Source: a virus (Duplodnaviria; Heunggongvirae; Uroviricota; Caudoviricetes). From it: 15,817 bases of DNA. Position 1 is the stretch's first letter; each line of letters begins with the position of its first letter. Positions 6,645 through 8,139 of the stretch are shown one piece after another. The stretch lies in IMG/VR virus record IMGVR_UViG_2537561618_000006. One strand, given 5' to 3'. The notes beneath the pieces were generated by a model that was not told the DNA's origin, made no database searches, and worked only from the letters and a program-made list of their open reading frames with translations. The position numbers were made by a program, and so were the translations under genes.

Positions 6645-8139
6645 TCTTTCACATATTATCGCTGCGGCATTCAATGAGCCGCTGCTTCTGGAGCCCGCCT
6701 ATGCGCGGGTTTTCTTTTGCGCGCTCGGGCGTGAGATGGGCGCAGCAAGCCTTTCGGTACCGCAACAGCAGGTACAGCTTGACGCTCCCGGGATGCTGGC
6801 TGAAACGGACGAGTACATGGCCGGAGGCAAACGACCTGCCCGTGTTTACCGGGTGGTGAACGGTATTGCTGTACTGCCGGTGACCGGCACGCTGGTACAC
6901 CGGCTGGGTGGCATGCGGCCATTTTCCGGAATGACTGGCTATGACGGCATTGTCGCCTGTCTTCAGCAGGCAATGGCGGACACTCAGGTACGGGGCGTAC
7001 TGCTGGACATTGACAGTCCTGGCGGGCAGGCCACCGGCGCGTTTGACTGCGCTGACATGATTTACCGTCTCCGGCAGCTGAAGCCTGTCTGGGCACTGTG
7101 CAATGACACGGCCTGTTCAGCCGCCATGTTACTGGCATCGGCCTGCTCCCGACGGCTGGTTACCCAGACATCCCGTATCGGCTCCATTGGGGTGATGATG
7201 GGCCATGTCAGCTATGCCGGTCATCTGGCACAGGCCGGTGTGGATATCACGCTGATTTACGCCGGATCGCACAAGGTGGATGGCAATCAGTTTGAATCCC
7301 TGCCAGCAAAGGTTCGCCAGGACATGCAGCAGCGCATTGATGCGGCGCGCCGGATGTTTGCTGAAAAAGTGGCGATGTATACCGGTTTATCTGTGGATGC
7401 GGTTATGGGAACAGAGGCCGCCGTTTTTGAAGGTCAGTCCGGTATTGAGGCCGAACTGGCGGATGAATTAATCAATGCGTCGGACGCCATCAGCGTGATG
7501 GCTGCGACGCTGAACACACACGATACAGGAGGCACTATGCCGCAATTAACTGCAACGGAGGCTGCCGCGCAGGAGAACCAGCGAGTGATGGGGATCCTGA
7601 CGTGTCAGGAAGCGAAAGGACGTGAACAACTGGCCACGATGCTGGCAGGGCAACAGGGTATGAGCGTTGAGCAGGCCCGGGCGATTCTGGCCGTGGCGGC
7701 ACCGCAACAATCTGGTGTATCTGCGCAGAGTGAAGCCGATCGCATTATGGCATGTGAAGAGGCGAAAGGACGTGAACAACTGGCGGCAACGCTGGCGGCG
7801 ATGCCGGAGATGACGGTGGAAAAAGCCCGTCCGATTCTGGCTGCTTCACCGCAGGCGAATGCCGGACCCTCACTTCGTGATCAGATTATGGCCCTGGATG
7901 AGGCAAAAGGGGCAGAGGCGCAGGCTGAAAAACTGGCGGCCTGTCCGGGGATGACCGTGGAGAATGCCCGGGCTGTACTGGCGGCAGCCTCAGGCAGGGC
8001 AGAACCGGTTTCTGCATCCATAACCGCCATGTTTGAACATTTCATGGCGAACCATTCACCGGCAGCGGTACAGGGTGGCGTGCCACAGACGTCAGCAGAC
8101 GGTGATGCGGACGTGAAAATGCTCATGGCCATGCCATGA
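6634..8139 (+). CDS. C: Capsid maturation protease / scaffold (lambda gpC-like, S49/ClpP-like peptidase) with extended C-terminal scaffold region
   Basis: 501 aa; FNEPLLLEPAYARVFFCAL, GIAVLPVTGTLV, TACSAAMLLASACSRRLVTQTSRIGSIGVMM (active-site serine context), ITLIYAGSHKVDGN match lambda gpC; GTG start overlapping the portal stop. Confidence 0.9.
   Translation: MRRNLSHIIAAAFNEPLLLEPAYARVFFCALGREMGAASLSVPQQQVQLDAPGMLAETDEYMAGGKRPARVYRVVNGIAVLPVTGTLVHRLGGMRPFSGMTGYDGIVACLQQAMADTQVRGVLLDIDSPGGQATGAFDCADMIYRLRQLKPVWALCNDTACSAAMLLASACSRRLVTQTSRIGSIGVMMGHVSYAGHLAQAGVDITLIYAGSHKVDGNQFESLPAKVRQDMQQRIDAARRMFAEKVAMYTGLSVDAVMGTEAAVFEGQSGIEAELADELINASDAISVMAATLNTHDTGGTMPQLTATEAAAQENQRVMGILTCQEAKGREQLATMLAGQQGMSVEQARAILAVAAPQQSGVSAQSEADRIMACEEAKGREQLAATLAAMPEMTVEKARPILAASPQANAGPSLRDQIMALDEAKGAEAQAEKLAACPGMTVENARAVLAAASGRAEPVSASITAMFEHFMANHSPAAVQGGVPQTSADGDADVKMLMAMP
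7324..8139 (+). CDS. Possible internally initiated scaffolding protein (lambda Nu3-like) in the C frame
   Basis: In-frame ATG at 7324 (MQQRIDAARRMFAEKV...) at a position analogous to the lambda Nu3 start inside C; inference by analogy only, no obvious strong RBS seen. Confidence 0.35.
   Translation: MQQRIDAARRMFAEKVAMYTGLSVDAVMGTEAAVFEGQSGIEAELADELINASDAISVMAATLNTHDTGGTMPQLTATEAAAQENQRVMGILTCQEAKGREQLATMLAGQQGMSVEQARAILAVAAPQQSGVSAQSEADRIMACEEAKGREQLAATLAAMPEMTVEKARPILAASPQANAGPSLRDQIMALDEAKGAEAQAEKLAACPGMTVENARAVLAAASGRAEPVSASITAMFEHFMANHSPAAVQGGVPQTSADGDADVKMLMAMP
7582..7998. repeat. Tandem triplication (period about 153 bp) of a coding module within the C/Nu3 C-terminal region
   Basis: gcgaaaggacgtgaacaactggc occurs at 7609 and again at 7762; protein repeats RVMGILTCQEAKGREQLATMLAGQQGMSVEQARAILAVAAP / RIMACEEAKGREQLAATLAAMPEMTVEKARPILAASP / IMALDEAKGAEAQAEKLAACPGMTVENARAVLAAAS; lambda has a single copy of this module. 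Confidence 0.75.

Follow-up and report, generated by a model that had tools for sequence, protein, structure and literature searches.

An old triplication of a scaffold module in the phage 21-type C/Nu3 gene of a defective prophage

The window analysed here, a stretch of 15,817 nucleotides (nt) of DNA from a tailed phage (Caudoviricetes; IMG/VR record IMGVR_UViG_2537561618_000006), holds at positions 6634-8139 an open reading frame (ORF) that is a phage 21-type version of the nested lambda gene C/Nu3, in which the coding sequence of a scaffold protein lies in frame within that of a prohead protease. Our analyses confirm that the scaffold part of this gene encodes three tandem protein repeats. 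The triplication is old, being common to the phage 21 group and to Salmonella Gifsy-1-like phages, and all three modules are kept by purifying selection, while unequal recombination between the copies occasionally makes alleles with 2, 2.5 or 4 of them. It is also an already known and ordinary feature of phage 21-type head operons. Taken as a whole, a C/Nu3 gene of the phage 21 type with an old, selected triplication of a scaffold module is very probably the best explanation of the observations.

Three tandem modules at the Tri boxes of phage 21

Module positions were obtained with a hidden Markov model (HMM) and regular-expression mapping on the 501-residue ORF. The three copies, referred to as R1, R2 and R3, and the longest exact repeat shared by two of them are located as follows:

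7579-7707, plus strand: module R1, residues 316-358 (HMM 80 bits; equals the Tri1 box of phage 21)
7735-7854, plus strand: module R2, residues 368-407 (HMM 81 bits; equals the Tri box of phage 21)
7876-7998, plus strand: module R3, residues 415-455 (HMM 74 bits; equals the Tri3 box of phage 21)
7612-7634, plus strand: first copy of the 23-nt exact core GCGAAAGGACGTGAACAACTGGC, in R1, encoding EAKGREQLA
7762-7784, plus strand: second copy of the core GCGAAAGGACGTGAACAACTGGC, in R2, 150 nt downstream of the first

The original prediction, made from the sequence alone, had placed three tandem copies at 7582-7998, and this was borne out: the HMM matches span 7579-7998 and, in the self-similarity alignment, the pairwise local BLOSUM62 scores of the copies reach 90-106, as against 24-26 ± 5 for shuffled sequences (z 13-17, with 0 of 1000 shuffles reaching them). 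At the nucleotide level, a seed-extension repeat search recovered a 94-nt pair at 73% identity and a 36-nt family with three members at spacings of 150 and 141 nt, and the longest exact repeat measures 23 nt, compared with a mean of 8.9 nt and a maximum of 14 in shuffles. Tandem Repeats Finder did not report the array in this region, because the copies are too diverged, the nucleotide differences between them amounting to 32-43% of positions.

The module consensus, ..ILAC.EAKGRE.LA..LA..PGMTVE.A...LAAAP, extends over about 42 residues. The predicted size of about 50 residues is correct as a period (47-50 residues), which is made up of the module itself, of 40-43 residues, plus a linker of 7-9 residues. 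Similarly, identical 23-nt cores had been described as lying 153 bp apart; there is indeed an exact pair, a single one and between R1 and R2 only, and its spacing is 150 nt.

The array had been put forward as a possible novelty, and in this respect the public record precedes us. GenBank M81255, which covers the head operon of phage 21, annotates three repeat_region features within gene 6, named 'Tri1 box', 'Tri box' and 'Tri3 box', which reportedly come from work by Smith and Feiss in Gene in 1993. Converted to window coordinates with an offset of +5133, the three boxes fall at 7604-7707, 7744-7854 and 7885-7998, collinear and without indels, and their ends coincide with those of R1, R2 and R3. 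The window gene and phage 21 gene 5/6 align in megablast over their full length (1506 nt, ungapped, 92% nucleotide identity), the 501-residue protein being 94% identical in amino acids to the product of phage 21 gene 5, and 18 further phage records besides phage 21 match the gene likewise at 92%, full-length and without gaps. Phage 21 genes 5 and 6, which code for the head-tail preconnector gp5 and the scaffold gp6, resemble the window gene in the 501-residue ORF, the putative internal start, the ribosome-binding site (RBS) and the positions of the boxes, as well as in their neighbours, namely the portal gene, the shp decoration protein and a major capsid protein of 342 residues, which is encoded at 8581-9609 in the window. 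They differ from it by about 8% nucleotide divergence, and the prophage around the window gene, unlike phage 21, is defective; moreover, R2 reads EANGRE in phage 21 and EAKGRE in the window, a difference that gives the latter its 23-nt exact match to R1.

The finding is ordinary because the Tri boxes were annotated decades ago and because the module is present in about a third of complete Escherichia coli genomes. A match was found in 1,870 of 5,426 such genomes, and of 60 E. coli records sampled from those 1,870, 58 align collinearly across the three copies. Deposited phages yielded 184 matching records, and the whole three-module scaffold is covered in 20 of these (19 from the phage 21 group, and Gifsy-1); in lambda, N15, 434, HK630, mEp237 and phages of Proteus, Vibrio and Xylella the match extends over roughly a single module, a copy number of one having been verified for lambda only. 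When a 21-sequence module profile was searched against 1.84 billion representatives, 1,542 clusters (at 50% identity) were recovered at E ≤ 1e-3, and the 143 newly listed representatives of these clusters carry one copy per protein in 128 cases, two in 11 and three in 4. In these representatives its usual place is some 80 residues before the C-terminus in S49 proteins, or else in ORFs of about 130 residues. Independent duplications have occurred in other lineages (proteins listed in our survey as P0225, P0252 and P0249), and P0024, a protein of E. coli, carries four copies that have been homogenised. Scans against Pfam and NCBIfam gave no family model over the module. As a discovery the triplication thus carries little weight, having stood in the public record for some 30 years; its residual value lies in a module that is without a curated domain model despite its presence in more than 1,500 protein clusters.

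Age, maintenance and copy-number variation of the triplication

The shared 23-nt core had been taken to suggest a relatively recent duplication, a view that the comparisons contradict. The DNA identity among the three copies of the window is 57-68%, whereas that between each copy and the phage 21 copy at the same position is 86-94%. In a neighbour-joining tree of the modules, which is indicative only since the sequences are short, the R1 modules of all the three-copy enterobacterial proteins group with single-copy modules, that of lambda included, and R2 and R3 of the window group with R2 and R3 of Salmonella homologues (R2 with that of P0034). In an alignment of 13 proteins, collinearity across the three modules holds down to 45% identity and position-specific residues are seen, and the order R1 to R3 is kept in Gifsy-1. 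When the window is compared with phage 21, the ratio of nonsynonymous to synonymous substitution rates (dN/dS) amounts to 0.07 over the modules and to 0.10 over the protease domain. The positional grouping, the collinearity, the copies in Gifsy-1 and the dN/dS values therefore indicate that the triplication predates the split between the E. coli and Salmonella phage lineages and has been maintained by selection.

It is accordingly very improbable that the window lineage underwent a recent expansion in copy number, which would amount to a fresh change in scaffold design. Such an expansion would account for an exact core in R1 and R2 that exceeds the shuffle maximum by 9 nt, and copy number does change over short time scales in close relatives; however, the overall DNA identity between copies is too low to fit it well, the same three copies are present in phage 21, ev017, 4A7 and others (20 isolates) and in nearly all of the sampled E. 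coli genomes, and positional orthologues exist in Gifsy-1 and in relatives at 45-60% identity. The core itself is interrupted by mismatches in phage 21, and therefore a short conversion patch or a retained ancestral sequence, as a local R1/R2 feature of the window lineage, explains it best.

Variation in repeat number among gpC/Nu3 homologues had been suggested as a check, and such variation exists: close relatives carry 2, about 2.5, 3 or 4 copies. This survey was made with the full-length protein as query, the 200-residue scaffold having returned only short or partial proteins, and it covers proteins at least 79% identical among the best 120 of 1,282 matches. Alongside the three-copy form of 501 residues, two-copy forms were found of 452 residues (R1 followed by R3) and of 451 residues (an R1/R2 hybrid joined inside the EAKGREQLA core, then R3), and in the natural two-copy variant P0184 the R1/R2 junction lies within the 23-nt core stretch. 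Forms of 482 and 472 residues have about 2.5 copies with a truncated R2; in these natural variants and in that of 452 residues, R2 is the copy affected by truncation or loss, while the four-copy form of 551 residues has gained an R3/R2 hybrid joined at PGMT/PEMT. The junctions of these variants lie in repeat homology, as expected for unequal recombination.

These alleles occur in different genomic settings. The very widespread 482-residue allele, with 3,592 indexed blocks in the assembly collection, and the four-copy allele both lie in head-tail operons that look complete; the two-copy allele of E. coli O157:H7 is found in a clearly decayed prophage, and all 20 sequenced phage isolates have three full copies. 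As regards the original suggestion that copy number could alter the interaction between scaffold and capsid, the presence of the 2.5- and four-copy forms in intact-looking structural operons points to tolerance of copy-number change rather than to a sharp functional switch.

Larger rearrangements were also observed in E. coli. A protein of 657 residues from one chromosome (P0098) has about 156 residues duplicated internally, a segment that runs from the last part of the protease domain through the internal start and across the first 2.5 modules; this would double the internal Nu3 start site. In three others, P0181 (721 residues) and P0182/P0183 (577 residues), the three modules are followed by unrelated tail-fibre-like sequence that replaces the normal tail, and these proteins are presumably deletion fusions in decayed prophages.

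The nested C/Nu3 gene and the possible role of its modules

The features of the gene that surround the modules are the following:

6634-8139, plus strand: prohead protease coding sequence, like lambda gpC and phage 21 gp5 (501 residues, GTG start, intact)
7527-7532, plus strand: Shine-Dalgarno sequence AGGAGG, 4 nt 5' of the internal ATG (read from the sequence)
7537-8139, plus strand: putative scaffold coding sequence, like lambda Nu3 and phage 21 gp6, 200 residues, in frame within the protease gene (equivalent annotated in phage 21)
7999-8136, plus strand: C-terminal tail, residues 456-501, a homologue of the tail of lambda Nu3 in which two short helices are predicted (..MFEHFM.. and ..VKMLM..)

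The identification of the gene as a gpC/Nu3 homologue, as originally proposed, stands on its S49 domain, its lambda-like position, and a module and tail homologous to those of lambda Nu3. The S49 peptidase makes up the N-terminal two thirds of the 501-residue ORF, which matches Peptidase_S49 (Pfam PF01343) at residues 147-292 with E=3.2e-33, above the gathering score, and phrog_53, head maturation protease, with E=7e-222; a sequence search of the PDB matched SppA structures with E=3e-14. The protease domain is 60% identical to that of lambda gpC, and the motifs ..CSAA.. and ..GSHKVDGN.. can be read by eye in both proteins. The head operon runs in the order small terminase, large terminase, portal (split), C/Nu3, decoration protein, major head protein and FI, so that the gene has the portal gene on one side and the genes for decoration and major capsid proteins on the other, as in lambda.

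The repeats lie wholly within the part that is common to the protease and to the predicted, internally started scaffold, in agreement with the original prediction. The signals for the internal start are conserved with phage 21 and lambda, and translation from it is predicted on this ground; a putative RBS of gene 6 is annotated at the same site in M81255 and in OL657228, and the initiator methionine of the scaffold is nearly invariant in the 13-protein alignment, in which the pattern of the tail is likewise conserved. Three stretches of the scaffold match phrog_8399, head scaffolding protein (E=1e-34).

That lambda has a single copy, as had been assumed, proved to be the case: lambda gpC (439 residues) contains exactly one module, at residues 360-400 (50.6 bits). 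Each module of the window aligns to the lambda module (residues 364-401) at 52-61% identity, the flank before R1 aligns to the lambda flank and the tail after R3 to the lambda tail, and BLASTP aligned window residues 418-491 with lambda residues 364-433 at 42% identity. The two systems also share the signals for a nested in-frame scaffold, with a GGAGG RBS, and the gene order, and their capsid proteins are 63% identical and of the same length. In contrast to the window, lambda Nu3 has its one module after a low-complexity segment of about 50 residues rich in Ser, Thr and Ala, and measures 131 residues from MTKETQ, as against 200 for the window scaffold. Regarding this start, the lambda RefSeq entry NC_001416 annotates nu3 as a protein of 201 residues starting at 5132, inside the protease domain, whereas the lambda homologue of the phage 21 gene 6 start is the methionine of MTKETQ after GGAGG, which gives the form of 131 residues; public annotations of the internal start are thus mutually inconsistent.

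The gpC homologue of Salmonella phage Gifsy-1, STM2605, has three modules in the same order as the window. The C proteins of the two are about 57-64% identical and the capsid proteins 87%, while the linkers and tail of the Gifsy-1 protein are more diverged and it carries a C-terminal extension (..IPGTSAT).

Structure prediction, which had been proposed as a further check, gave helical modules. AlphaFold2, run with the 13-sequence alignment, modelled three short helices per module with a predicted local distance difference test (pLDDT) score of 74-80 and linkers below 60, and placed the tail helices at Nu3 residues 160-173 and 191-196; the scaffold model as a whole has a mean pLDDT of 68.6 and a predicted TM-score (pTM) of 0.27. 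Helical units were also obtained, likewise with moderate confidence, in a single-sequence AlphaFold run. Each module is therefore predicted to be a small, independently folded three-helix unit, with flexible linkers of Pro, Ala, Gln and Ser in between, and the pTM value suggests no fixed arrangement between modules, as for beads on a string. Foldseek searches of PDB and BFVD returned nothing significant beyond the C-termini of homologous S49 or prohead proteases.

A relationship to helix-hairpin-helix (HhH) or NusA AR-type domains was considered but set aside: a PDB sequence search with the module profile gave chance-level matches only, of profile positions 20-39 to the C-terminal repeats of NusA at E=0.8-0.9, and Foldseek lent no support. 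The string LAxxPGMTxxxAxxIL does resemble the HhH pattern hxxhxGhGxxxAxxhh, a likeness at the level of the pattern only.

Different roles might be assigned to these modules. We tentatively propose, as a possibility somewhat short of even, that they act as the protein-protein contact units of the scaffold, so that each chain, with three of them, would be multivalent in its contacts with the inner side of the major capsid protein, with the portal and further scaffold molecules, or with both. Since the same modules form the shared C-terminus of the protease, they would also bring the latter into the assembling procapsid, where it would then destroy the scaffold. Consistent with such a role, the module is the only strongly conserved and predicted-folded piece of lambda-type Nu3 proteins, and lambda Nu3 interacts with itself and with C, E and B according to yeast two-hybrid data and curated literature (PMC3224144). 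The scaffold gp8 of phage P22 may serve as a working analogy for a module of about 40 residues docking on the interior of the shell, as a functional analogue only. It carries a small helical coat-binding domain, a C-terminal helix-turn-helix, near the end of a flexible chain, although it has a single such domain and no fused protease, and is recycled rather than degraded. No likeness to the gp8 C-terminal domain was detected as a PDB sequence match or as a Foldseek match at E ≤ 1, the latter being a weak test of fold for a 200-residue, multi-module model of that pTM.

Several points weigh against contact units of this kind. Each Tri box is noted in M81255 as 'function unknown; putative', the confidence of AlphaFold2 is only moderate, and Foldseek yielded no informative analogue. 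The scaffolds of P22, phi29 and 80alpha bind their partner by a conserved C-terminal tail, and by analogy the tail could be what binds the partner here, the modules having another role. A valency of three is, in addition, not essential, because half of R2 is missing from the 482-residue allele and lambda gets by with a single copy beside a capsid protein of the same length. The same observations, together with the 2-, ~2.5-, 3- and 4-copy alleles of closely related proteins, the frequency of the 482-residue allele in an operon of complete appearance, and the low-complexity segment that accompanies the single module of lambda, favour the main rival, in which the modules would be largely dispensable spacer, filler or bulk substrate for the protease, their number nearly neutral, and the capsid bound by the tail. 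We nevertheless regard this as distinctly unlikely: dN/dS over the three modules is as low as in the protease domain, the motifs EAKGRE and PGMT are invariant in every copy and across the 1,542 clusters, each of the 20 sequenced phage isolates has three full copies, and between the window and Gifsy-1 the modules are roughly 74% identical and the tail roughly 35%, both figures being by-eye estimates rather than computed values. A further alternative, which we consider somewhat unlikely, retains contact units and directs them to self-association of the scaffold or to recruitment of the portal protein (gp4/gpB) instead of to the capsid protein. The modules are the only predicted folded units besides the tail, and lambda Nu3 interacts with itself, incorporation of the portal protein B also depending on it, although a Nu3-E interaction was also detected by two-hybrid in the same source (PMC3224144).

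That the repeats might be a DNA-level element, such as CII boxes, or an artefact of assembly is hardly credible. OL657228 does annotate two TTGYN6TTGY 'CII binding sites' in the region, one of them inside R2, but the window contains this pattern 3 times where chance alone predicts 3.2 occurrences, no excess of promoters or terminators was seen (the scan itself being uninformative), and conservation is at the protein level, in the plus-strand frame. An artefact, which the original prediction had named as a possible refutation, is excluded because the copies are too diverged for an assembler to collapse or expand them and because the same layout, that of the 20 phages and of the sampled E. coli genomes, recurs in thousands of independent assemblies.

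A broader extension of the contact-unit reading, rather doubtful in our view, would make the module an autonomous three-helix domain by which scaffolds linked to an S49 protease universally dock, in more than 1,500 clusters and in lineages ranging from enterobacterial ones to those of Xylella, Vibrio and cyanophage. Copy numbers of 1 to 4 would then be a naturally tunable valency, reset time and again by unequal recombination. If this were true, phage 21, lambda and the 2-, 2.5- and 4-copy alleles would form a ready series relating valency to scaffold-to-capsid stoichiometry and to the fidelity of assembly. The natural alleles with 1, 2, ~2.5, 3 and 4 modules beside nearly identical capsid proteins would permit a clean test of valency in the assembly of T=7 lambda-type heads.

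State of the surrounding prophage

The prophage in the window is defective, while the C/Nu3 ORF itself is intact. Fragments of insertion sequences (IS) and transposases extend over positions 1 to ~2640 on both strands (313-774 minus, 1194-1517 minus and 1797-2456 plus). The ORF of the small terminase (2644-2964) corresponds to no more than the C-terminal half of its PHROG family, and the 5' end of this gene appears to have been removed by IS insertion. In E. coli, the best matches to the window begin only at 2659.

An extra T (at ~6039) in a run of T at about 6033-6046 breaks the portal gene (5051-6644) into two ORFs, at 5051-6106 and 6021-6644. The run reads T6 in the window, T5 in an intact E. 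coli prophage of 98.7% identity, and TTTTC in phage 21. Four independent NCBI assemblies that encode a C protein of 99% identity have the same T6 allele and no called portal protein; the split gene is accordingly a pseudogene that was inherited, rather than the product of a read error.

Similarly, the tape-measure gene (12881-15817 of the window) is spread over three frames, with ORFs at 12881-14053, 13930-14343 and 14463-15647. Compared with an intact reference of 98.7-99% identity, it shows 1-nt indels near 13920, 14330, 14420 and 14453 and a deletion of ~293 nt near 13240, which provide further evidence of decay of the prophage. Two further ORFs, at 12197-12601 and 12610-12939, occupy the position of the G and T tail assembly chaperone genes in the reference prophage; in lambda, the G and T genes are linked by a programmed -1 frameshift.

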